Shown here one piece after another: positions 1 through 10,991 of a DNA stretch of 64,000 nt; within the stretch, counting starts at the first letter, position 1, and each line of letters opens with the position of its first letter. A program made the translations under genes and the position numbers. Origin of the DNA: Candidatus Doudnabacteria bacterium (lineage in GTDB: Bacteria; Patescibacteriota; Doudnabacteria; UBA920); NCBI GenBank assembly GCA_023245995.1, contig JAHFJH010000003.1:1585-65584 (forward strand), in the 5' to 3' direction. A model generated the notes under the pieces. The model was not told where the DNA came from, did no database searches, and was given only the letters and a program-made list of their open reading frames with translations.

Positions 1-287
1 GTAAGCCGCAACGTAAATTCAGAAACTCCAAACAAAGAAAATAAACCAGCAGTAGTATATATATAAAGAGGGTTTTTATACTCCCCAAAAGCTTTAAAGT
101 ATATTGGTAAGAGTACACCATGTTCGTCACGTGCAGTATGCGCAATCAAATAAGCGTTATACCCTATTGAACTTTCATCTACATATAATCCGCGTGGCAA
201 AGTAGACAAACGCCACACGTGAACAAAAACTAAAAGTGTAAGTATAAGTGCAAGAATAAGTCGGAAAAAAAGTGAATTACCATGCAT
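1..287 (-). CDS. GT-C family glycosyltransferase (ArnT/PMT-like), N-terminal part; the 3' end runs off the window
   Basis: Minus-strand translation from the ATG at 287 gives MHGNSLFFRLILALILTLLVFVHVWRLSTLPRGLYVDESSIGYNAYLIAHTARDEHGVLLPIYFKAFGEYKNPLYIYTTAGLF. The DE..GY.AY..A....GDW-like motif and the hydrophobic N-terminus are typical of the ArnT/PMT family. It is not in the ORF track because there is no stop inside the window. Confidence 0.5.
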   Translation of the reverse strand, partial: MHGNSLFFRLILALILTLLVFVHVWRLSTLPRGLYVDESSIGYNAYLIAHTARDEHGVLLPIYFKAFGEYKNPLYIYTTAGLFSLFGVSEFTLRL

Positions 288-418
288 AAAGTTTTGCTAC
301 TTTTTAGTATACTTTTCTCCCAAAAGAGCAAAAGTTGCTTCCCACTATAAATAAGATGCAAAGCGCTATAACTGAAATGACACAGAGATCTTTTTTAAAT
401 AAATATATAGCTTTTGCT

Positions 419-625
419 TTATTTATTTTTGTTCTTAACAAATTTTGGTTTTACAGAGATTATTCGCTGAGGCTTTGGCGCTTCATTCCACAACCTTCTA
501 TCATTTTCACGACTTGCCTTAAGGCAAGGCAAATGCAGATTGTATGTTTCTTTATTTTCGAACCAATCCCCGCAATCAGGACAAACTTCGCCAGCGTGAC
601 GATCTACAAACTCTCCTCTTGGCAT
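419..625 (-). CDS. small hypothetical protein with a CPDCG...C zinc-ribbon-like motif
   Basis: 68-aa ORF MPRGEFVDRHAGEVCPDCGDWFENKETYNLHLPCLKA... with cysteine pairs and a basic tail. No clear SD. It is more plausible than the overlapping plus-strand ORF 335..646. Confidence 0.3.
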   Translation of the reverse strand: MPRGEFVDRHAGEVCPDCGDWFENKETYNLHLPCLKASRENDRRLWNEAPKPQRIISVKPKFVKNKNK

Positions 626-728
626 ACAATATTGTTAGCCAATTAACCTTTATAAGTATACCAAACCTAAAAAAAGACTGTCCCGCTATAGGCGGAGACA
701 GTCTTTTCTATAAGCTAGAACCTAGCAA

Positions 729-1916
729 CTACTTTAGTATTTTTGTAACAACACCAGCACCAACAGTTCTACCACCTTCACGGATAGCGAACTTGCCTTT
801 TTCTTCCAAGGCGACTGGAGTAATAAGTTTAATTGTTACTGTAATGGTATCGCCAGGCATAACCATTTCTGTACCTTCAGGTAAGGTTACTTCACCAGTT
901 ACGTCTGTTGTACGAACGTAAAACTGTGGTTTATAGCCTTTAAAGAATGGAGTGTGGCGTCCACCTTCTTCTTTAGTAAGAATGTAAACTTCAGCAGTAA
1001 ACTCAGTATGAGGAGTAATAGAGCCAGGCTTGGCCAAAACTTGACCGCGCTCAACTTCTTCCTTCTTCACACCGCGAAGTAGTACACCTGCGTTGTCGCC
1101 TGCAAGACCTTTGTCCAGTTGCTTGTTAAACATCTCAATACCAGTAGCAACGGTCTTCGTTGTAGGCTTGAGTCCGACAATTTCAATTTCGTCGTTTATG
1201 TTCAACGTACCGCGTTCAATACGGCCAGTTACCACAGTACCACGTCCTTCAATAGTAAAGATGTCTTCTATTGGCATTAGGAACGGCTGGTCTACTGCGC
1301 GCTCTGGTTGTGGAATGTAAGAGTCCAAAGCTTCTACTAATTTTAGAATAGAAGGTTCGCCAATTTCACTCTGATCGCCTTCCATAGCCTTAAGCGCGCT
1401 ACCACGAATAATTGGAGTGGTGGCACCTGGGAACTCATACTTGGTAAGAAGATCGCGAATCTCTTCTTCTACAAGATCCAACAATTCTGCATCTTGCACC
1501 ATGTCTACTTTGTTCATGTACACAACAATGTATGGCACACCAACTTGGCGAGCAAGCAAAATGTGTTCACGAGTCTGTGGCATAGGACCGTCTGCTGCAC
1601 TAACAACCAAGATTGCACCGTCCATTTGAGCGGCACCGGTAATCATGTTCTTAATGTAGTCGGCGTGTCCTGGACAATCTACGTGCGCATAGTGGCGCTT
1701 GTCAGACTCGTATTCAACGTGAGCTGTGTTAATGGTAATACCACGGGCTTTTTCTTCCGGGGCATTGTCAATTTGGTCATAGGCGCGAGCCTTAGACTTT
1801 CCCGTCTTTGCAAGCACGGTTGTAATGGCCGCAGTTAAAGTGGTTTTACCGTGGTCGACGTGACCAATGGTACCCACGTTTATGTGCGGCTTGGAGCGAT
1901 CAAACGCTTCTGCCAT
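729..1916 (-). CDS. tuf: elongation factor Tu
   Basis: 395 aa: [32 protein letters not shown]...DCPGHADY...NKVD. Full-length EF-Tu with the G1-G4 GTPase motifs. Confidence 0.97.
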
Positions 1917-2179
1917 TGTTCTATTCCTTCATCGCCCGAGAAATCCTCGCCCCTGCATCTGTATAGACAGATTCAGAGCCGAGGGACTCTCTTTTTTACC
2001 GCAGGTCACCCATAGCTTTGCGCGAAGGGTGATAAACCACGATTATCCAGAGCGAAATTAATTAATAATTAACCAATAATAAGCGCGCTTCAGTTTCCTG
2101 TGCGCTATAGAGATTATAGAGAATAACTGGCTTCCATGTCAAACAGTACAACCGCATGGCTAAAAGCTGTAAATACCAA

Positions 2180-2215
2180 AAAAAGATGCGTATAGGAAAA
2201 CCCTCATCTTGTATA
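2180..2215 (-). terminator. intrinsic terminator downstream of the Phd-like gene
   Basis: Minus strand reads AAGAUGAGGGUUUUCCUAUACGCAUCUU followed by UUUUUUUGG, a stem-loop plus U-run. Confidence 0.4.
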
Positions 2216-2247
2216 TAAAAATATAATAAAACTACTATCAAAAAAGA

Positions 2248-2610
2248 TTAAAGGTCGTCGGGAGCATCAAAGTCGAAACTCGGGTCTATAACTTCTTCCC
2301 GCAAATCATGTTTTGGTAGGTTGGTCTTTATTTGTGGTGGGAACGTGGAAGGATACGGATTTCGCGCCGCAGGAGCCGTCCCTACTTTAAGCGCCTGTTC
2401 TGCTAACTGCGCCTTTAATATTTCTTCATTTACCACTGCTGGATCTGGCACGTTTGGAGATTGAAAATTAGAGATTGGAAGTTTCTGCTTCAGTTTACCG
2501 TACTCCTCCACCCCCATAAGCACGAGCTGAACATTTCCCTGCTCATCCATAATAAAAACCTTCCCCGCTTCCTGTTTACAAAGTTTTACAATGTCTTCCA
2601 AAGTTTTCAT
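2248..2610 (-). CDS. Phd/YefM-like antitoxin-domain protein with a Pro/Asp-rich C-terminal tail; no cognate toxin adjacent
   Basis: The N-terminal segment LEDIVKLCKQEAGKVFIMDEQGNVQLVLMGVEEYGKLKQ matches the Phd/YefM pattern (..ilitr.g..v.vlms.eeY..L). The C-terminal 70 aa are low-complexity P/D/E-rich. Confidence 0.45.
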   Translation of the reverse strand: MKTLEDIVKLCKQEAGKVFIMDEQGNVQLVLMGVEEYGKLKQKLPISNFQSPNVPDPAVVNEEILKAQLAEQALKVGTAPAARNPYPSTFPPQIKTNLPKHDLREEVIDPSFDFDAPDDL

Positions 2611-2794
2611 ATAAAAAAATTACTAGCCACCCCATAATACCCTAAATACCGCCCGGAGTCGAGCACGATAATACGCATACGGAACGCTATCCTAGCCATT
2701 TGAAATCTATTTTTCAATACGCTATACTTGCTTATTCTTCTTATGGGCTCAGTACGAAATATGAGAAAATTGACCAGACACATAATCTTCACAT

Positions 2795-3703
2795 ATGCAA
2801 AATAGGTTAGCCATTGGTGTTTGCGCAAAGAATGAAGAAGGGGGCATTGCGACTTGCCTTACGAGTATCCTAAAATCTGCGAACAGATTATCTTGTGACT
2901 GGAACCTATACATATGCGTAAACGGATCTACGGATTCTACTTTGGTACAAATTCACAGATGGATAACAAAAACGGGATTCCAATGCAAAGTGTTAGTGCT
3001 GCCGCATGCAAACCTAGTTGAAGCCCAGAGATGCATTGTGAACCAAGCAGTAGTAGACAAATGTAACTATTACGGATTTATTGACGCTGACACCAAAATT
3101 CACAAATACTGTATCCCCTATCTTATGGATAGAATTGTTAAAAATAAAAACATCAAAGCAGTTTACGGGCTATCCATACCTTCCAAAACGCATAAGCCAA
3201 CCCTCATTGAAAGGATAATGAATAACTATGACCAACCGAAAGCAGAAGTGTACTCTGCGCGCAAACACCTACACGGCAGAGCCTTTATCACCACAGACTG
3301 GAATATTCCCAAAAATATAGAAGAACCGCTGATTTGCGATGATATTTATCTCTCGTGCTATTTACTAAAAAAATATGGAGAACAGAGCATACAAGGCGTT
3401 GAGAATGCACAAGTTCAATTTAAACAAATTAGATCGTTTGAAGACTACTATAAGCTCTACAAAAGACATAAGCTTGAAAAAGACAAGGTATTAAAAAACT
3501 ATAACGAATTTAAGACATTGCCCACAGATCAAGTGTATCGACAATTCTTACCTAAAAACCTTTTACACGACTCATTGAAAAACGGCCTGTTATGGGTGCT
3601 TCTGTTAGGCATAAAACAAGTAGCGAGTTATAGGTTGACCATAGAAAAGCTCTTTTACCCACACGTAAAGCCTCAATGGGAAGAAACACTAACCAGTAAG
3701 TAA
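2795..3703 (+). CDS. family-2 glycosyltransferase (GT-A fold)
   Basis: The N-terminus IGVCAKNEEGGIATCLTSI resembles the GT2 '.v.IPa.NEe..i...l.S' start. A DxD-type GFIDADT motif is also present. Length is 302 aa. Confidence 0.55.
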   Translation: MQNRLAIGVCAKNEEGGIATCLTSILKSANRLSCDWNLYICVNGSTDSTLVQIHRWITKTGFQCKVLVLPHANLVEAQRCIVNQAVVDKCNYYGFIDADTKIHKYCIPYLMDRIVKNKNIKAVYGLSIPSKTHKPTLIERIMNNYDQPKAEVYSARKHLHGRAFITTDWNIPKNIEEPLICDDIYLSCYLLKKYGEQSIQGVENAQVQFKQIRSFEDYYKLYKRHKLEKDKVLKNYNEFKTLPTDQVYRQFLPKNLLHDSLKNGLLWVLLLGIKQVASYRLTIEKLFYPHVKPQWEETLTSK

Positions 3704-3707
3704 GTGT

Positions 3708-4301
3708 ATGAAGATAATCATTTTCGAAGGCATTTGCACAAGCGGAAAATCATCGGTTATACAAAAATTAAAAAGAATTCTCAGCGAACGCAAACTACCA
3801 TGCAATATTGTTACAGAGGATGAAGTTAAAAAAGCGATGTTTGCCAACACGGACATGACAAAGAGTATTCTCCGTATGGAAAAGTTCCTTGCTAAAAACG
3901 TACATAGCAAAAAGAACGTTTTGTTTGATCGTTTATATTTATCTTTGGTAGACAGATGCGAACAACCGGACTCATTGTTTAAAAACCTAGAGGAACGCAT
4001 TATTAAACACAATGCATCAATAGTATTTTTGTATATTCCACCCCGAAGTATAAAAATTCGTTTATCTGGTGCGTCGCTCCATCGCGGAACAAAATGGAAG
4101 AATTATCTAGATGGTTTAGGTGGTATAGAAATGGCTACCACATATTACTCAAACCAACAAAAGAAAATACTGCGATACTTAAAACAATGCTCAGTTCCTC
4201 ATATCATTTACAACACAGAGAGTAGAGACTACGAGCACATATCTGAAAAAATATACAAAACTCTTATTAAACCACCAAAAGACCGTCTCCCTACGCGGTA
4301 A
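3708..4301 (+). CDS. P-loop nucleoside/nucleotide kinase-like protein
   Basis: Walker A motif IFEGICTSGKSS at the extreme N-terminus and a size of 197 aa fit the dNK/thymidylate-kinase/zeta-toxin-like kinase fold class. The 4-nt gap to the upstream GT2 gene suggests an operon. Confidence 0.5.
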   Translation: MKIIIFEGICTSGKSSVIQKLKRILSERKLPCNIVTEDEVKKAMFANTDMTKSILRMEKFLAKNVHSKKNVLFDRLYLSLVDRCEQPDSLFKNLEERIIKHNASIVFLYIPPRSIKIRLSGASLHRGTKWKNYLDGLGGIEMATTYYSNQQKKILRYLKQCSVPHIIYNTESRDYEHISEKIYKTLIKPPKDRLPTR

Positions 4302-4320
4302 GACGGTCTTTTTCTTTCTT
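4279..4320. terminator. bidirectional intrinsic terminator between the kinase gene (+) and fusA (-)
   Basis: Inverted repeat aagaccgtct-(12 nt)-agacggtctt, followed by tttttctttc on the plus strand and UUUUGG on the minus strand. Confidence 0.6.
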
Positions 4321-4362
4321 TAACCTAAAACCTAGTAGCTAGCACCTATAAGCTACTCGGAA

Positions 4363-6486
4363 TTACATACCCTTACGAACATTTATACCGGCACGACTTT
4401 CTATAATCTTTTGAGCAATATTATTTGGTACTTCGCCGTAGTGGTCAAATTCCATACTGTAGCTCGCTTGGCCTTGTGTCATGGAACGCAAACTTGTGGC
4501 ATAGCCAAACATTTCCGACAAGGGAACCATGGCATCTATAATTTTCAAGTGCAAGCGATCTGTCATTTCGTTTATCTGTGCGCGCTTAGAATTTAAGTCG
4601 CCAATGACGTCACCCATGTTTGACTCTGGTGTGGTAACTTCCACTTTCATAATCGGCTCTAAAATTACTGGGTTCGCGCGTTTAACTGCTTCCTGCAAAG
4701 CCTTGCTGGCTGCAATTTTAAACGCCATTTCAGAAGAGTCTACTTCGTGGTAGCTACCGTCGTAAACTGCCGCACTAAAATCTACCAGTGGGTACCCTGC
4801 AATAACACCGTTAGCAGCCGATTCCTGAATACCTTTGTCTATTGGCTTTATGTATTCTTTTGGAATAACACCACCAACAACTTCATCTTTAAATTCATAA
4901 CCCTTACCGCGTTCTAGAGGCTCTACTCGCAAGTAGACATGGCCGTACTGTCCACGACCACCAGTTTGACGAATGTATTTATTTTCCGCAGTGGCAGTAC
5001 CTTTAATAGCCTCTTTGTAAGCAACCTCTGGTTTACCCACATTGGCTTCCACTTTAAACTCGCGCTTCATGCGGTCTACAATAATTTCCAAATGCAACTC
5101 ACCCATACCGGCAATAAGAGTTTGGCCGGTTTCTTCGTTGGAGGTAATTTTAAATGTCGGGTCTTCTTCTGCCAACTTTTGCATAGCAATACCCATTTTT
5201 TCTTGGTCTGCTTTGGTCTTTGGCTCTATGGCCATGGAAATAACAGGGTCAGCAAACTTGATTGACTCTAAAACAACCGGCTTATCTACATCACAAAGTG
5301 TATCTCCTGTAAAAGTGTCTTTGGGGCCAACTAAGGCACAAATATCTCCGGCAAAAACTTCTTTTACTTCGTCGCGTTCGTCTGCTTTCATGCGAACTAT
5401 ACGACCCACGCGCTCTTTGTTGCCGGTACGCGCATTCAACACATACGAGCCTGCTTCAAGCGTTCCGGAATACACACGGAAGAAACACAAGCGTCCTACA
5501 AACGGGTCGGTAGCAATTTTAAACGCTAAAGCAGAAAAAGGTTCAGTGTCACTTGGGTTGCGTAAAACTTCTTCGCCCGTTTTAAGGTCGTGGCCTTTTA
5601 CTGAGCCCTTATCTGTTGGACTTGGTAAAAAGTTCACCACTGCATCTAACATCATTTGTACTATTATGCCTCGGTTGTCTCCACCAATAACTGGGAAAAA
5701 CTGGCCGGACTGAGTAGCCTTACGAATAGTTTGCAAAAGTTCAAGTTCCGTAAGCTCCGCTCCAGATAGATACTTTTCCATGACTACATCGTCGTACTCC
5801 ACAACTTTTTCTATAAGCTTATGGCGCCACTCTTTGGAGAGTTCTACCATATCGGCAGGAATTTCGCCTACTGTAAACTCTTTGTCGTGGAATTCTTTGT
5901 AGGTATAAGCTTTCATTTGCACCAAGTCCACCACACCACAAATATCTTTCTCAAACCCAATTGGAAGCTGCACTGGCATTGCGTTTGGGTTCAAGCGTTT
6001 TTGAATAGACTCTAAGGATTTATAAAAATCGCCACCGGTCTGGTTAATCTTATTTATAGAACAGACACGTGGCACACCATACTTGTCTGCTTGGCGCCAT
6101 ACCGTTTCGCTTTGTGGCTCTACACCCATTTTACCGTCGAACACAGTAACAGCACCATCAAGCACGCGAAGAGACCTTTCTACCTCTACAGTAAAATCTA
6201 CGTGTCCAGGAGTGTCTATGATGTTAATTTTATATTTCTGGTCTGCTGCCAACTTTATGTGCTGAGGGCTCCAATAACAAGTAACAGCCGCGCTTGTGAT
6301 TGTAATACCACGTTCGCGTTCCTGTTCCATCCAGTCAGTTACAGTTTCACCTTCGTGCACCGCACCAATTTTATGAATCATACCGGTGTTAAACAAAACA
6401 CCTTCTGTTGTTGTGGTCTTACCCGCGTCAATGTGGGCAATAATACCAATATTACGGGTCGCTTCTATAGGGTATTCTCTGGGCAT
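4363..6486 (-). CDS. fusA: elongation factor G
   Basis: 707 aa: [28 protein letters not shown]...DTPGHVDF. Canonical EF-G. Confidence 0.97.
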
Positions 6487-6605
6487 AGTAGTAAAATTTC
6501 CAATTTTTAATTTTGCAATTTTTAATAAATGCTTAAATGCATTAGGCTTTAAACATTTATAAATTGAAAATTCATTAAAAATTAAAAATTATAAAAATTA
6601 AAAAT

Positions 6606-7166
6606 TTATTTTCTCTTATTACCGAACCGTGCAAAGTGCGCAAAGGCTTTGTTAGACTCTGCCATACGGTGAGTGTCTTCGCGCTTTTTGTACGCGTTAC
6701 CAAGTTTGTTGTATGCATCTATCATTTCTGCGGCTAGCTTTTCACCCATTGGAGCGCCCTTGCGAGCTCGGGCAGCATTTATAAGCCACTTCATACCAAG
6801 TGTAGTTTTGCGTGGTTCTTGTACTTCCATTGGTACCTGATAGTTGGACCCGCCAATGCGACGACCCTTAACTTCAACCATTGGGCTAACATTTTTTAAA
6901 GCAATTTCAAAAACTTGTTTACCATCTAAAGACTTATCCGCAGTCTCTTTAGAGTCCGTAGAACCGGCACCAGTGGAAGGATTGCTTGCACTTAGCGCGG
7001 CCATTTTCTCGGTTACAGTATCTATGGCAGTGTAGAATATCTTTTGAGCAACAGTTTTCTTGCCCCGTTCCATGAGGTAGTTAATAAACTTTGCGTACTT
7101 TACACTGTTAAATTTTGGATCAGCCGTAGGAATACGGCGTTCGTAACTTCTTGCTCTTCTTGGCAT
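6606..7166 (-). CDS. rpsG: 30S ribosomal protein S7
   Basis: MPRRARSYERRIPTADPKFNSVKYAKFINYLMERGKKTVAQKIFY...; 186 aa with an internal Ser/Thr/Gly-rich insertion. Confidence 0.95.
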   Translation of the reverse strand: MPRRARSYERRIPTADPKFNSVKYAKFINYLMERGKKTVAQKIFYTAIDTVTEKMAALSASNPSTGAGSTDSKETADKSLDGKQVFEIALKNVSPMVEVKGRRIGGSNYQVPMEVQEPRKTTLGMKWLINAARARKGAPMGEKLAAEMIDAYNKLGNAYKKREDTHRMAESNKAFAHFARFGNKRK

Positions 7167-7249
7167 ATATGTAATAGCTTCTAGGTTCTAGCTAATAGGT
7201 GCTAGCTCAAGATTTCTCTAGAAGCTAGTTCCTAGCAGCTAGAAGCTAC

Positions 7250-7666
7250 TTAGGCTTTCTTGTTCTTAGCGCCGTATTTAGAACGACCACGCTTTCTCCC
7301 GTCGACTCCGAGAGTGTCTAACTTACCTCTAACTATGTGGTAACGTACACCAGCCAAATCTTTTACTCTTCCACCACGAAGTAGTACCACGCTATGTTCT
7401 TGCAAATTGTGCCCAACTCCAGGAATGTAGGCCAAAACTTCCATGCCATTGGTAAGTTTTACCTTGGCCACTTTACGTAAAGCAGAGTTAGGTTTACGAG
7501 GAGTAGTAGTGTACACCTTTAAACAAACGCCACGAATAAAAGGAGCTCCTTTTATTTCTATGGGCTTATTTTTTATTAAATTAATGCGACGGCGGAGTGC
7601 CGGAGACGCAGGTTTTACCCGTAAGGGTTTGCGGCCTTTTCTGACCAGCTGATTTATTGTTGGCAT
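7250..7666 (-). CDS. rpsL: 30S ribosomal protein S12
   Basis: [24 protein letters not shown]...[17 protein letters not shown]. Canonical S12. Confidence 0.97.
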
Positions 7667-7760
7667 TCTTAATTAGTGGCTAGTGATTAGTGGCTAGTGA
7701 TTAGTAATTAAATTCATGAAAAGTGCAGTATTGGCCAGACTAATCACTGTCCACTGTCCA
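7667..7760. repeat. short tandem direct repeats upstream of rpsL
   Basis: ttagtggctagtga occurs twice in tandem at 7673-7700. It is followed by three cactgtc units (cactgtccactgtccactgttcactc). Both blocks begin with taatcact. Confidence 0.4.
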
Positions 7761-7781
7761 CTGTTCACTCAAAATAAAAAC

Positions 7782-7812
7782 CCAAGCAAAGGGTTTTTTG
7801 CTTTTCTTCACT
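7782..7812. terminator. A-run/hairpin/T-run element (possible bidirectional terminator)
   Basis: aaaaaccc-aagcaaa-gggttttttg; the stem is extended by A/T pairing on both strands. Confidence 0.3.
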
Positions 7813-7817
7813 ACCAG

Positions 7818-7853
7818 TACCCGCCTCTTCGGCGGGTCGCCGATGAGGCGACT
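7818..7853. ncRNA. conserved double-hairpin motif, copy 1 (unknown function)
   Basis: tacCCGCCtcttcGGCGGG followed by GTCGCCgatgaGGCGAC. The same two-hairpin unit recurs at 23863-23897 with compensatory stem changes, and partially at 24301-24322. Confidence 0.3.
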
Positions 7854-8122
7854 CCCTTGAAACCTGTAAGGGTTAAACTTCCTAGTAAATGAGACCAAAT
7901 AATAGTAATTCCTTAAAGTTTCGACTCTAAGGGGCTTCCTATTCACTTGTTAAAGAAATTATACCTAAATAAGCCCAAAACCGTCAATATTGACTTTATA
8001 GTCAATATATGCTACAATATCGCATATTTGCTTGCTTATATAGAACATAGAACTTCGATCCTCAATTAAGGGGAACGAATACCTGTAAACGCCCATAAAA
8101 AGTAAGCCAGTAAGGAGGAAAC

Positions 8123-8476
8123 GTGACAGACCAAGAAATGCAGACACTACTAGCTCGCATGCGCGATGCTAAAACTGCAGAAGGGCTTTTTATAGCTGAG
8201 ATCGCCAACAGAAGTGGCCAAGCAGCGGAAAGTCACAGAAGTAATGCCACAACGGTTGTAGCCGCCCTAATTATGATGGCCTATACAGCCTACATTCACT
8301 ACGACTGGCCTCACCCTTTCTCGTGGCTAATGGTTGGAGGATTTTTTCTGGCCGGAGTCGCGTGCATTGGTAGCAAGGTAACAGAAAAAGACTATGTGGA
8401 GTTGTGTCATGGGTGCTGGACGATTGCATTCTTTGTATGGCTAATTTTCATAGCCGTACCGAACATCTTCCTGTAA
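8123..8476 (+). CDS. hypothetical small membrane protein (GTG start)
   Basis: Strong SD taAGGAGGaaacGTG. 117 aa with two or three hydrophobic helices. Confidence 0.5.
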   Translation: MTDQEMQTLLARMRDAKTAEGLFIAEIANRSGQAAESHRSNATTVVAALIMMAYTAYIHYDWPHPFSWLMVGGFFLAGVACIGSKVTEKDYVELCHGCWTIAFFVWLIFIAVPNIFL

Positions 8477-8558
8477 GCCATGGCCTGTTACGCATACTAC
8501 AACTTAAGAGCCTGGAGCGGACCGACTAAACGTCGTCCCCGCTACCAGGCTTTTTCCT

Positions 8559-9617
8559 TTATACGTATGGAGGGCGCAAATTAGCGGGCATATGCTCAAA
8601 CATCAGCTCTTGAGCAATTATTTGTGCTTCCAAATGACTAATATTGACTTCCAAGTGATGAACCCGAATTAAATTTTCCAAGTCCGCAACGTAATCATAC
8701 TCTTTCGGTTGATACTGCGGATTGTCCGCATATCTAAAATACTCTCTAGCTTTTGTCGCCACCAGAGCTTCAAGGTTAGGATACACCTGTTTTGTATTAT
8801 CCCACTTTCCATGCATTCTGATGAGCTCACCGACCTCGCGACTAGATAATCCTAAAGCTTTTAACTGCTCTAGCGTTCCCACAGCATAAGCAGTTTGATA
8901 GTGTTTCCCTTTATACATAGGGCTATGTTCAATTGTGTCTGCCACATCTTGGCGAGACTTCAACACTGAACCATCGCCATACCTATAGGCATGCGCCTCC
9001 TGCAACTCAACACTTTGATGCAACGAGCGTGCTATATCCATTGCACTAAACTTTTTATCAACAAGCAAAGCAATCCGTCTGATAACTCCAGGAAATTGGT
9101 ACCCGTGTGTAGCTTCGTGGTTTAAAGTTCTCACACTGTCTGGTAGGTCTCCATAAGCCGCAAGATGAAACAATGACTCGGCGGTAGACGGCACGGGAGC
9201 TGACATTGTGGCTTCTTTAAAAAAAGGCAAGGGGTTAAATTCTCCGGAGGCATGCGTCATACCTTCATTCCAGGACACTTTTACGTTAAATGGTTTATAA
9301 CCTTCATCAAAGTCATGGAGTATATAATCAAATACACCGGCCTCTTCAAACTCTTCAAAGAAATCAGTCTCTCTTTTTATTTTAAGAAAAGTATCCTTAT
9401 ATAAGGCAGTTAGCTCTGCTGAAGGCAAGGCCTGAATGGCCTCGACCATATAAGGCTGACGAAACTGCAAGAAACGCGGCTTAGTTTTTAGCTCTCTTTG
9501 CCTAGAGAGCAGCTCTTCTATTTTCTTTTCAACGCCCCCAGCCACTGTTTCCTTCTGTTCGACCTCTGTGGGTGTGGACTGCTCGTGCGAACGAAAACTC
9601 ATAAAAATATTAAACAA
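8559..9617 (-). CDS. hypothetical protein with an HExxH motif (possible zinc-dependent hydrolase)
   Basis: 352 aa containing NHEATHGYQ (HEATH). No other family recognised from sequence. Confidence 0.45.
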   Translation of the reverse strand: MFNIFMSFRSHEQSTPTEVEQKETVAGGVEKKIEELLSRQRELKTKPRFLQFRQPYMVEAIQALPSAELTALYKDTFLKIKRETDFFEEFEEAGVFDYILHDFDEGYKPFNVKVSWNEGMTHASGEFNPLPFFKEATMSAPVPSTAESLFHLAAYGDLPDSVRTLNHEATHGYQFPGVIRRIALLVDKKFSAMDIARSLHQSVELQEAHAYRYGDGSVLKSRQDVADTIEHSPMYKGKHYQTAYAVGTLEQLKALGLSSREVGELIRMHGKWDNTKQVYPNLEALVATKAREYFRYADNPQYQPKEYDYVADLENLIRVHHLEVNISHLEAQIIAQELMFEHMPANLRPPYV

Positions 9618-9662
9618 TTAAGTTACTACTTAGTGGAAACTCCGCCTATAAATACAGAAGTA

Positions 9663-10271
9663 CTAGAAAAAATTAATGCCAAGCAATCGAGAAAACCAAA
9701 GTATTACGGGAACTAATACACGGTCTAAAATGCCGAGATAGAGGAAAATAAATACAAGTATAAAACCAAAACGTTCATAAGAAAGTATTTTATACATCCA
9801 CTCTTCTGGCGCAAAAGCTGCTAACACTTTACTGCCATCTAGCGGCGGAATGGGAATAAGGTTAAATGTACCCAAAACTAAGTTTATTAGCACCGCTTGA
9901 ATAAGTACAGTGACTGCAAAACCTGAAAAAAATCCGGTTTTTAAAATAATCGCAAAAATAATTGCCAGACCAAAGTTAGAAAGCGGACCAGCCAAAGACA
10001 CTAGCACCATACCCAGTCTTCTTGGTTGCAAGTTGTAAAAATTTACCGGCACAGGTTTTGCAGCACCCAAAATAACAGGACTACCAACTAGCATTAAAAC
10101 TAGCGGTAACATTATAGACCCAAACGGGTCTATATGCGGTATGGGATTTAGGGTAATTCTCCCCTCAAGGCGAGCAGTATCGTCGCCAAACTTCTCCGCC
10201 ACAGCCCCATGCATAACTTCGTGCACTATGGCCGAAAATATTAATATAACTAGTTGGATTATGTAGGACAT
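9663..10271 (-). CDS. site-2 protease family (peptidase M50) membrane metalloprotease
   Basis: HEVMHG (HExxH) in TM1 and the NLIPIPPLDGS motif, which is the M50 'LDG' signature. 202 aa, polytopic. Confidence 0.8.
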   Translation of the reverse strand: MSYIIQLVILIFSAIVHEVMHGAVAEKFGDDTARLEGRITLNPIPHIDPFGSIMLPLVLMLVGSPVILGAAKPVPVNFYNLQPRRLGMVLVSLAGPLSNFGLAIIFAIILKTGFFSGFAVTVLIQAVLINLVLGTFNLIPIPPLDGSKVLAAFAPEEWMYKILSYERFGFILVFIFLYLGILDRVLVPVILWFSRLLGINFF

Positions 10272-10443
10272 AAAATAAATTTCTAGTTTCTCCTAATACT
10301 TGCCAAGTATATCAAAATATGGTAGATTTATCTAGCTACTATTACTAAATTATAACGGCGTGTAAGCATAGAGTTTCTAGAAAAAACCTTGCCAATTCGG
10401 CATTTTCTACACCCTATCCCCTATACGCTATACCCTAACTTCC

Positions 10444-10632
10444 ATGCCAAGAATGTGTACCGTATGCGGCAAAACCTACGCCCGTACCATAAAAAGAAGT
10501 CACTCCATGCGCGCCTCCATTGTACGCCTGCAACCCAATTTGCAATGGACCAGAGACGCAAAAGGCCAGCGCGTAAAAGCCTGCGCCAGATGCATTAAGA
10601 CTAAAACCAAGTCTGCCCGCGTGACTGCTTAA
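10444..10632 (+). CDS. rpmB: 50S ribosomal protein L28
   Basis: MPRMCTVCGKTYARTIKRSHSMRASIVRLQPNLQ... The C-x-x-C-GK...RSHS...PNLQ pattern is characteristic of L28. Confidence 0.85.
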   Translation: MPRMCTVCGKTYARTIKRSHSMRASIVRLQPNLQWTRDAKGQRVKACARCIKTKTKSARVTA

Positions 10633-10644
10633 CTATAAATAAAA

Positions 10645-10677
10645 AATACCGTTGGGTACCCAACGGTATTTTTTTAT
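10645..10677 (+). terminator. intrinsic terminator after rpmB
   Basis: aataccgttgg-gta-cccaacggtatt followed by ttttttt. Confidence 0.6.
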
Positions 10678-10727
10678 TGTATATACCAAACCCTAAAACA
10701 GGAACTCACAGATAAACATAGCAAGAA

Positions 10728-10991
10728 CTAATCTAACTCGTCCTCTTTGGGCTGTTCATGAAGTTGCTCTCTTATAGCTCTTATCTCAGCTTTTTTACTG
10801 TCAATTATTGCAATATCTGCCGCGACAGGATCCCCCATTGCGACCATACCTCTTACTTCCCTACGTAATACATCTATTCTTTTCCGCAATGCCTCATCTT
10901 CCGCGTTAAAGCCTTCTTGCTTCTCTAAGGCTCCGCTCAAAGTCCCATCCTGCGACTTTGTTTCAAGCCCAATCATACTTCTCCAACTCAT
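10728..10991 (-). CDS. hypothetical small charged protein
   Basis: 87-aa ORF with a helical, coiled-coil-like composition. No motif recognised. Confidence 0.35.
   Translation of the reverse strand: MSWRSMIGLETKSQDGTLSGALEKQEGFNAEDEALRKRIDVLRREVRGMVAMGDPVAADIAIIDSKKAEIRAIREQLHEQPKEDELD

Follow-up and report, generated by a model that had tools for sequence, protein, structure and literature searches.

The window analysed here is a stretch of 64,000 nucleotides (contig JAHFJH010000003.1) from a Candidatus Doudnabacteria bacterium, a member of the candidate phyla radiation (CPR). Between its translation-factor genes fusA and tuf lie a small-protein gene on their own strand and, on the opposite strand, a family-2 glycosyltransferase (GT2) followed by a P-loop kinase. 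We found that the whole junction has been remodelled in this lineage. The small gene is an ancestral resident of the fusA-tuf junction, tuf has a structured leader RNA, and the spacers on both sides of the small gene form an insertion hotspot, of which the GT2-kinase pair is one species-specific cargo. The explanation that we favour overall, with moderate confidence, is a remodelled junction with an inserted cassette, whose GT2 and kinase would be the two-polypeptide version of a bifunctional enzyme.

Gene order and its conservation

The adjacency of fusA and tuf is a textbook case of operon conservation. In the window the order is rpsL-rpsG-fusA, then the kinase and the GT2 on the opposite strand, the small gene and tuf. 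The open reading frames (ORFs) are as follows.

729-1916, minus strand: tuf (EF-Tu, 395 aa), ORF with Pfam GTP_EFTU domains on an identical product and 85-96% identity to tuf of related loci
2248-2610, minus strand: small-protein ORF, 120 aa, from the ORF map and homologs
2795-3703, plus strand: GT2, 302 aa, ORF with a PF00535 match, DxD motif D97-A98-D99 and a short hydrophobic helix near the C-terminus
3708-4301, plus strand: P-loop kinase, 197 aa, of nucleoside monophosphate (NMP)/deoxynucleoside-kinase fold and an uncurated family, with its last ~7 codons inside a terminator stem
4363-6486, minus strand: fusA (EF-G, 707 aa), ORF with Pfam domains and 80-93% identity in relatives
6606-7166, minus strand: rpsG, ORF
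7250-7666, minus strand: rpsL, ORF

The original prediction, made from the letters of this DNA, had described the junction as interrupted, and every ORF that it named was recovered where it had placed it. Its tight coupling of GT2 and kinase also holds, as the kinase ORF begins 4 nt past the GT2 stop on the same strand; the two genes are probably co-transcribed and translationally coupled. The same gene arrangement was assembled on 5 contigs from 5 independent samples, so it is not a chimera. Samples ERZ27296333 and SRR14366769 are among those that contain the contig.

Two relatives, L008 and L009, were reached first, through proteins at least 90% identical to the window EF-G. In both, fusA and tuf are separated by a co-directional homolog of the small ORF, of 123 or 135 aa, and neither has the GT2 or the kinase there. 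A scan with one genome per species gave 23 loci from 22 metagenome-assembled genomes (MAGs), whose labels read Doudnabacteria, Patescibacteria group or uncultured Saccharibacteria; the L008 contig came up among them once more, and L009 was added separately. A full-length homolog of the small protein is present in 20/23 scanned loci, and 2 more loci start inside the gene.

In all, 22 related loci enter the comparisons that follow; they represent 21 distinct MAGs at species level, as one MAG was fetched twice. The small gene, ~110-145 aa long in the clade, is found in all 22 with fusA and/or tuf as a flank and on the same strand, and the order is rpsL-rpsG-fusA-small-tuf wherever a locus includes both flanks. 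By contrast, a GT2 or kinase at the junction is absent from all 22, including the nearest relatives (EF-G ~92% identical). The small gene is thus an ancestral fusA-tuf resident of the clade and not, as had been proposed, part of the insertion: it is present throughout the related loci with no kinase alongside. The relatives share the window's gene order as an ancestral state for the small gene, and for the GT2-kinase pair they do not.

Both spacers around the small gene vary in length across the relatives (fusA-small, 90-2122 nt; small-tuf, 233-2211 nt) and hold differing accessory genes, so the junction is an insertion hotspot. The cargo that Pfam identifies differs from locus to locus: L022 has a ParE toxin and, upstream of it, a small partner, L023 a GIY-YIG nuclease, L029 an rve-type transposase and an MNT/HepT pair, L020 a DUF559 endonuclease and L015 a PD-(D/E)XK protein (PDDEXK_3). 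Several lipoprotein-like ORFs, not in Pfam, also belong to the cargo. The fusA-tuf junction, assumed at first to be inviolate, is in this lineage a place of recurrent insertion, and the GT2-kinase pair is an ordinary accessory-gene gain.

The spacer between tuf and rpsJ is variable as well (about 0.2-2.7 kb in L008-L032), which indicates that the whole str/S10 boundary is loosened in the clade. In the close relative L009, an rve-family integrase/transposase (1934-2926) lies immediately upstream of rpsL, placing a mobile element at the edge of str. Literature searches found no published work on this gene order, or on the tuf leader, in CPR.

In our model, the ancestral junction of the lineage would consist of fusA, a terminator overlapping a promoter, the small gene, a promoter with a structured leader, and tuf. 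Both spacers would act as soft spots on which accessory and selfish genes land repeatedly.

Boundaries of the GT2-kinase cassette

The signals around the GT2-kinase cassette are listed below; the promoters and the last hairpin are candidates.

4277-4312, both strands: bidirectional intrinsic terminator, common to fusA (minus) and GT2-kinase (plus), an inverted repeat that folds
2634-2666, minus strand: fusA-terminator remnant, with a decayed hairpin GTGCTCGACTCCGGGCGG at 2649-2666 (z 0.36), aligning with the terminator/promoter spacer of relatives
2634-2662, minus strand: promoter-like site of the small gene, TCGACT-17-TATTAT, 9/12 consensus match, overlapping the terminator remnant
2700-2728, plus strand: promoter-like site of GT2-kinase, TTGAAA-17-TATACT, 10/12 consensus match, divergent from the small-gene promoter
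2176-2210, minus strand: weak terminator-like hairpin AAGATG...CATCTT with a T7 run, downstream of the small gene, as read from the sequence

The last of these is not in the output of our repeat scan, which was limited to loops of 8 nt, as its loop is longer.

The terminator stem is a 12-bp perfect inverted repeat (4277-4288/4301-4312) with a 12-nt loop. It folds on both strands, with free energies of -31.7 kcal/mol (z -3.3) for the fusA strand and -17.9 kcal/mol (z -4.1) for the plus strand, and T-runs follow on both sides, strong on the plus strand (TTTTTCTTTCTTT) and weaker on the minus strand (TCTTTTGG). This bears out the proposal of a strong bidirectional terminator that also serves fusA. 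The kinase ORF enters the stem by ~7 codons, and other members of its family usually end sooner.

Comparison with relatives locates the inserted unit. In the nearest relatives, the region 3' of fusA reads TAGCTTnTAG..., then a terminator AAAAAGACC-CCTCGACTTCGAGG-GGTCTTTT, TAnTAT, and the ATG of the small gene. In the window this single spacer is found in two pieces. One piece, at 4277-4362, comprises its fusA-proximal part together with a complete terminator; the outer stem AAAAAGACC/GGTCTTTT of this terminator and the spacer upstream of it can be aligned with the fusA terminators of the relatives. The other piece, the remnant, lies on the far side of the cassette. The unit really inserted is therefore ~1.6 kb (about 2667-4276) and not the 2.4 kb of the original estimate.

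Parsimony favours gain of the cassette in the lineage of this species. A two-gene cassette of ~1.6 kb would have entered at the fusA terminator, oriented away from the small gene and bringing its own promoter-like site. It would end in the terminator that also stops fusA, and a decayed second terminator copy, with the small-gene promoter, would have been left on the far side.

No inverted repeats, direct repeats or target-site duplication beyond chance flank the cassette, no att-like repeats are associated with it, and no recombinase, transposase or integrase ORF or tRNA was found there. G+C content (GC) is 0.384 for the GT2 (z -0.75) and 0.359 for the kinase (z -1.47), compared with 0.411 +/- 0.035 for the genes of the window. 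Both values are inside the gene range, so composition gives no evidence of recent transfer.

The small protein between fusA and tuf

The small protein belongs to a family of at least 450 clusters at 90% identity, annotated as "hypothetical" throughout and with no Pfam domain in any of these clusters. In the alignment, the N-terminus is a conserved ~45-residue alpha-beta-beta-alpha domain that resembles Phd/YefM. Next come a helix that is likewise conserved (DxExINxEIxxAQL), a disordered Pro/Gln-rich linker of highly variable length, and an invariant acidic/aromatic motif, DLREEVIDPSF(D/N)F, at the C-terminus. The Pro-rich stretch, described earlier as the tail of the protein, is an internal linker, and the tail is this motif. 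An AlphaFold2 monomer model built from 71 sequences shows helix-strand-strand-helix-helix and then disorder, with a predicted local distance difference test (pLDDT) score of 66; the best Foldseek match of this model (E 0.35) is meaningless.

The window protein itself has no match to PF02604 (Phd/YefM), and matches below threshold occur in 12/23 members (best E 9e-4). Aligned by hhalign with an approximate E. coli YefM sequence, the family reaches 37% probability over 29 columns. A PDB sequence search with the profile gave nothing relevant, and no PADLOC anti-phage defence profile matched the protein. On its sequence, "Phd-like" is a fair description of the N-terminal domain; membership of Phd/YefM is not established.

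No conserved toxin partner (Doc, YoeB or RelE-type) lies beside the small gene, and its fixed neighbours are fusA and tuf. Toxin genes near it are sporadic and occur as cargo only, for example ParE in L022, so there is no toxin-antitoxin logic to the locus.

A remote homolog was observed on a distant CPR contig. In L108, a 182-aa protein (10234-10782, plus strand) is encoded directly upstream of tuf (at 10945; 69% identity). It matches the N-domain and helix of the small protein (hhalign 92%); its acidic tail, which ends in EEKFYLEPIE, differs. This suggests that the association with tuf predates the clade studied here. The same contig has a kinase-family member 4 kb upstream.

The tail EEVIDPSFDF is similar to tails by which translational GTPases or other partners are recruited. 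We tentatively propose, as an idea we think more likely wrong than right, that the small protein and the tuf leader RNA together are a lineage-specific control module for EF-Tu, in which the protein would regulate tuf expression or bind EF-Tu or EF-G. If true, this would give CPR bacteria a new component associated with translation.

A structured leader RNA upstream of tuf

Three elements precede tuf.

1932-2055, minus strand: structured 5' leader RNA of tuf, 124 nt, with conserved blocks and covariation, ending 15 nt before the tuf ATG
2056-2065: AT-rich palindrome TTAATTAATT, directly adjoining the leader at its 5' end, with the core (A/C)AATTAAT in all aligned relatives
2113-2142, minus strand: tuf promoter-like site TTGACA-18-TATAAT, a perfect sigma-70 consensus (12/12)

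TTGACA and a TAAAAT/TATAAT box are kept upstream of tuf in the relatives. The fold of the leader is a three-way junction, with GCYCUGG / UC.CGRGC as P1. P2 is a variable hairpin whose sequence and length differ per genome, frequently capped by a GNRA loop, and it is followed by an invariant A-rich strand, AAAAAAGAGA; P3/P4 (CCCUYGGC... / ...RAGGG) carries an AUCGAUA loop.

Several measures agree on this fold. RNAalifold predicts 20 pairs, 8 with compensatory changes. Leader cells are paired at 96.5%, compared with 86.5% in shuffles (0/500), and the covariation score is 0.376, compared with at most 0.084 for slid-partner controls. Folded as a single sequence, the leader has a z of -3.8.

Our covariance model, R1, matches the sense strand once, and always at this place, in each locus whose sequence covers the region upstream of tuf, and it matches the 64-kb window once. 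It also recovers copies outside the seed, in L010 and, degenerate, in L023 and L024. No Rfam match was found in positions 1-9000 of the window at E<=1.

Two leaders deviate: that of L024 (5550-5605) has no P3/P4 interior, and that of L023 (7138-7415) has an insertion of ~180 nt in P4. These natural variants could show which parts are dispensable. Separately, the palindrome TTAATTAATT was considered as an operator recurring upstream of the small gene. It was not found there, and its single copy in the window is what chance predicts, so this candidate was rejected.

The glycosyltransferase and its fusion relatives

The GT2 matches PF00535 over residues 7-119 with 44.4 bits (cut-off 23.3; E 2.3e-11), and its DxD motif is invariant in 5 homologs. 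Its best NCBIfam matches are far under their cut-offs (PgaC, 20.8 against 422). A PDB sequence search found no significant match to a solved structure, and no PADLOC defence profile matched.

The family is rare: in a search of 5.8 billion proteins, homologs form 4 other clusters only. Three of them (P0003, P0004 and P0005) are 39-44% identical to the GT2 over its full length, and each is fused to a P-loop domain. The window GT2 ends ...TSK* exactly where the fused homologs run on with TSKRTKYRPILVLVEGLDCSGKKT. What follows this boundary is a P-loop domain of ~200 residues (ILVLVEGLDCSGKKT...), weakly similar to thymidylate kinase (TMPK).

The fusion genes occur at three unrelated loci in a conserved cluster: a HAD phosphatase, a GT1 glycosyltransferase, a NUDIX-NDK-like or NDK-like protein, and GT2::kinase. 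A TPR protein is added in 2/3 of the loci and a second NUDIX in 2/3. The NUDIX-NDK-like fusion proteins lie at 7754-8287 in L004 and 8389-9357 in L006. In L006, the GT2::kinase gene is split by a frameshift into 425 + 96 aa (9362-10926), and a serine recombinase is found 5 kb upstream.

The most distant homolog, P0006, labelled Saccharibacteria, is a divergent neighbour of nrdAB, for ribonucleotide reductase (L113, 1809-5611). It is cut by the contig end inside the GT2, with any downstream kinase out of view.

Orthology between the window kinase and the fused kinase domains was also considered. It is ruled out, as hhalign aligns the P-loop only, over 31 columns.

The P-loop kinase

The kinase has a Walker A motif, FEGICTSGKSS, and weak matches to KTI12, AAA_33, APS kinase and thymidylate kinase. 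A word-index homolog search returned the query itself only. An HMMER scan of 1.84 billion representatives gave 147 relatives, almost all of them stand-alone proteins of ~190 aa with 25-38% identity. The invariant residues of the family are G8, G13 and K14, which form the Walker A motif, R118 and Q151; E7, S12, E37, D74-R75, R126, W130 and Y147 are nearly invariant. With a P-loop, a DR(Y/H/F)-type motif and LID arginines, the family resembles the thymidylate kinases. Its AlphaFold2 model is confident (pLDDT 92.4), and the window protein is probably active as an enzyme. Both assignments of the original prediction are thus upheld, the GT2 by PF00535 above threshold and the kinase by a Walker A motif invariant among homologs.

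The kinase does not profile cleanly as an ordinary TMPK, being below all curated thresholds: 17.1 bits for PF02223 (gathering cut-off 27) and 22.2 bits for TIGR00041 (cut-off 83.25). PF02223 is matched by 25/42 family members at the reporting cut of E<=0.01 (best E 1.3e-6), and PHROG 761 (phrog_761, "thymidylate kinase") matches the window kinase over its full length with E 1e-8. No family member was found among the viral contigs of the scan.

This GT2 stands beside the kinase in 0/80 other metagenome loci of the kinase family, where there is no conserved neighbourhood. The protein is a divergent enzyme of the NMP/deoxynucleoside-kinase fold that is not normally linked to a GT2. Some archaeal loci (L059, L072-L078 and similar) have an ATP-dependent DNA ligase upstream of the kinase, TBP downstream and MCM nearby, which suggests a housekeeping nucleotide-kinase role there.

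Genes downstream of tuf

On the other side of tuf lie two further genes.

1-287, minus strand: gene for a PMT_2 (GT-C) glycosyltransferase, present with its 5' part; the full product has 502 aa according to the parent-contig gene table, with the window coordinate taken from the contig offset
419-625, minus strand: 68-aa ORF between tuf and PMT_2, zinc-finger-like with CxxC...HxxxC (MPRGEFVDRHAGEVCPDCGDWFENKETYNLHLPC), called on two sister contigs

The PMT_2 gene is located between tuf and rpsJ, and the full gene is seen at 2680-4188 in L001 and at 4577-6085 in L002. No relative has it in the tuf-rpsJ spacer, so that tuf has species-specific glycosyltransferase insertions on both sides, GT2-kinase and PMT_2. 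PMT_2 may work with the GT2. No homolog of the 68-aa ORF was found in the related loci.

Possible roles of the pair

We propose that the GT2 and the kinase work together, because of the Rosetta-stone-type fusions and the 4-nt spacing of the two genes. With a nucleotide-sugar as the sugar donor for the GT2, the nucleotide side of the reaction would fall to the kinase, which would put a phosphate back on the (d)NMP or nucleoside diphosphate that is released or salvaged; phosphorylation of the acceptor by the kinase is a less likely step. A nucleotide-side role fits the NDK-like and NUDIX partners of the GT2 relatives and the salvage dependence of CPR bacteria, which cannot make nucleotides. The pair may in addition feed the species-specific PMT_2 across tuf, for envelope glycosylation. 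More speculatively, and with a low probability in our view, the GT2 and the NMP-kinase-like protein might represent a new type of bifunctional enzyme that combines glycosyl transfer with the handling of nucleotides. Of the first suggestions for this pair, a sugar-nucleotide or envelope module is still the best reading of a biochemical function that we infer.

Several observations weigh against this picture. As the window kinase and the fused domains align over the P-loop only, the argument from fusions works by analogy (domain displacement) and not by orthology. The lack of this GT2 at the 80 other kinase loci, with their unrelated neighbourhoods, means that the kinase may be a stand-alone housekeeping enzyme. 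The HAD, GT1, NUDIX and NDK-like partners are absent from the 64-kb window. As for the insertion itself, GC is not anomalous, the cassette lacks repeats, a target-site duplication and a recombinase, and the promoter calls are consensus matches only.

The alternative that survives best, which we still consider unlikely, is an incidental pairing. The kinase would be a housekeeping (d)NMP/deoxynucleoside kinase, a divergent TMPK analogue of small-genome bacteria and archaea, that came to lie beside an unrelated GT2. The ~190-aa stand-alone format with varied neighbourhoods, some archaeal members having DNA ligase, TBP and MCM, is as expected, and so are the TMPK-like motifs and fold and the phrog_761 match. 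The 64-kb window also contains no canonical tmk (searched with an approximate E. coli Tmk sequence), but 64 kb is too little sequence to call the gene missing from the genome. An accidental neighbour does not account well for the 4-nt spacing on one strand within a foreign-oriented cassette, nor for the TMPK-like domain that all full-length GT2 relatives bear at the same boundary. Moreover, the nearest relatives have no kinase at this site.

We are a little more doubtful of a lipid-linked route, in which the GT2 makes a polyprenyl-phosphate sugar (DPM1/GtrB/ArnC-like) for PMT_2 and the insertions flanking tuf belong to a single pathway that glycosylates the envelope or proteins. Both genes are particular to this species in the comparison with the 22 related loci and lie on either side of tuf, and pairing of a GT2 with a GT-C enzyme is the established logic of Ppm1/Pmt, ArnC/ArnT and GtrB/GtrX. 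One GT2 homolog has a weak GtrB-like PHROG match, and the short hydrophobic helix near the GT2 C-terminus is in line with this route. On the other hand, the GT2 relatives belong to HAD/GT1/NUDIX clusters that look cytoplasmic and contain no GT-C enzyme, a flippase gene was not seen, and the GT2 has no significant sequence match to solved structures.

An ancestral presence of the GT2 and kinase at the junction, followed by loss in every sampled relative, is very improbable. GC and third-position GC (GC3) of both genes are inside the genomic range, as such a history would predict, but 20 other species-level MAGs that cover the spacer are without the pair, 4 of them with EF-G ~92% identical. The one compact terminator/promoter spacer of the relatives is split and duplicated around the cassette in the window, and the GT2 homologs are located elsewhere in other genomes.

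Finally, a toxin-antitoxin relic, that is, a zeta-toxin-like UDP-GlcNAc (UNAG) kinase with the Phd-like gene as its antitoxin, is refuted in practice and has almost no probability left: the small protein does show weak Phd/YefM and RelB-like similarity and the junctions of relatives do hold toxin-antitoxin genes, but the small gene is at the site in 22/22 related loci independently of any kinase and on the strand opposite to it, Zeta_toxin (PF06414) matches the kinase neither in Pfam nor in NCBIfam, zeta toxins are not in the top 60 structural matches of the kinase model, with Foldseek in agreement, and PADLOC gives only a weak VakA match (E 3.7e-4).

Taken together, we continue to favour the inserted two-polypeptide enzyme at a remodelled junction. 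The small gene and the tuf leader are the most novel parts of the locus, and the surprise of the interrupted junction is largely explained by remodelling in the clade: a whole CPR lineage has rebuilt fusA-tuf, with a fusA terminator, a fixed small gene, a tuf promoter with leader, and spacers that collect cargo. Three leads follow, which can be tested in organisms that are otherwise hard to study. The first is the uncharacterised small-protein family tied to translation-factor genes. The second is a new covarying RNA motif before tuf. The third is a rare GT2 with a TMPK-like kinase, fused or adjacent, which hints at a coupling of glycosylation and nucleotide salvage.

Comparison with known systems

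The str genes sit in a highly conserved operon cluster (PMC8046335, PMC6735719). The four genes of the bacterial str operon (rpsL-rpsG-fusA-tufA) are found here in the same order and on the same strand. Unlike that operon, the clade has a fusA with its own terminator, an extra conserved small gene before tuf, a tuf with its own promoter-like site and structured leader, and two spacers that accept cargo.

The small protein is similar to Phd/YefM (PF02604) in its N-terminal ~45 residues, with a beta-hairpin and helix (..GKVFIMDEQGNVQLVLMGVEEYxKL) and subthreshold profile matches. It differs in lacking an adjacent toxin and the first strand, in its fixed str position, and in its long disordered linker and invariant acidic/aromatic C-terminal peptide. 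The tuf leader, in turn, is comparable to the ribosomal-protein leaders of Rfam, being likewise a structured and covarying 5' untranslated region before a translation gene. Unlike these, it has no Rfam match and is so far limited to this CPR clade and to tuf.

With respect to the enzymes, the window kinase is 12-22% identical to TMPK and deoxynucleoside kinases (PF02223, PF01712; B. subtilis SPbeta YorR, PDB 2axp/3kb2), below curated thresholds, and it stands in a ~190-aa family of its own, marked by an HRxxxW / YYxxQQ signature. The GT2::kinase fusions, themselves uncharacterised, share with the window a GT2 that is 39-44% identical over its full length and a kinase that starts at the same boundary. 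In the window, however, the kinase is a separate gene of a different P-loop family, without the cluster partners.

As in integration hotspots and defence islands, variable content rich in toxin-antitoxin modules and small nucleases is found between fixed core genes. In contrast to the usual hotspots, this junction is inside an otherwise single operon, and its cassette has no tRNA, integrase or att-like repeats.

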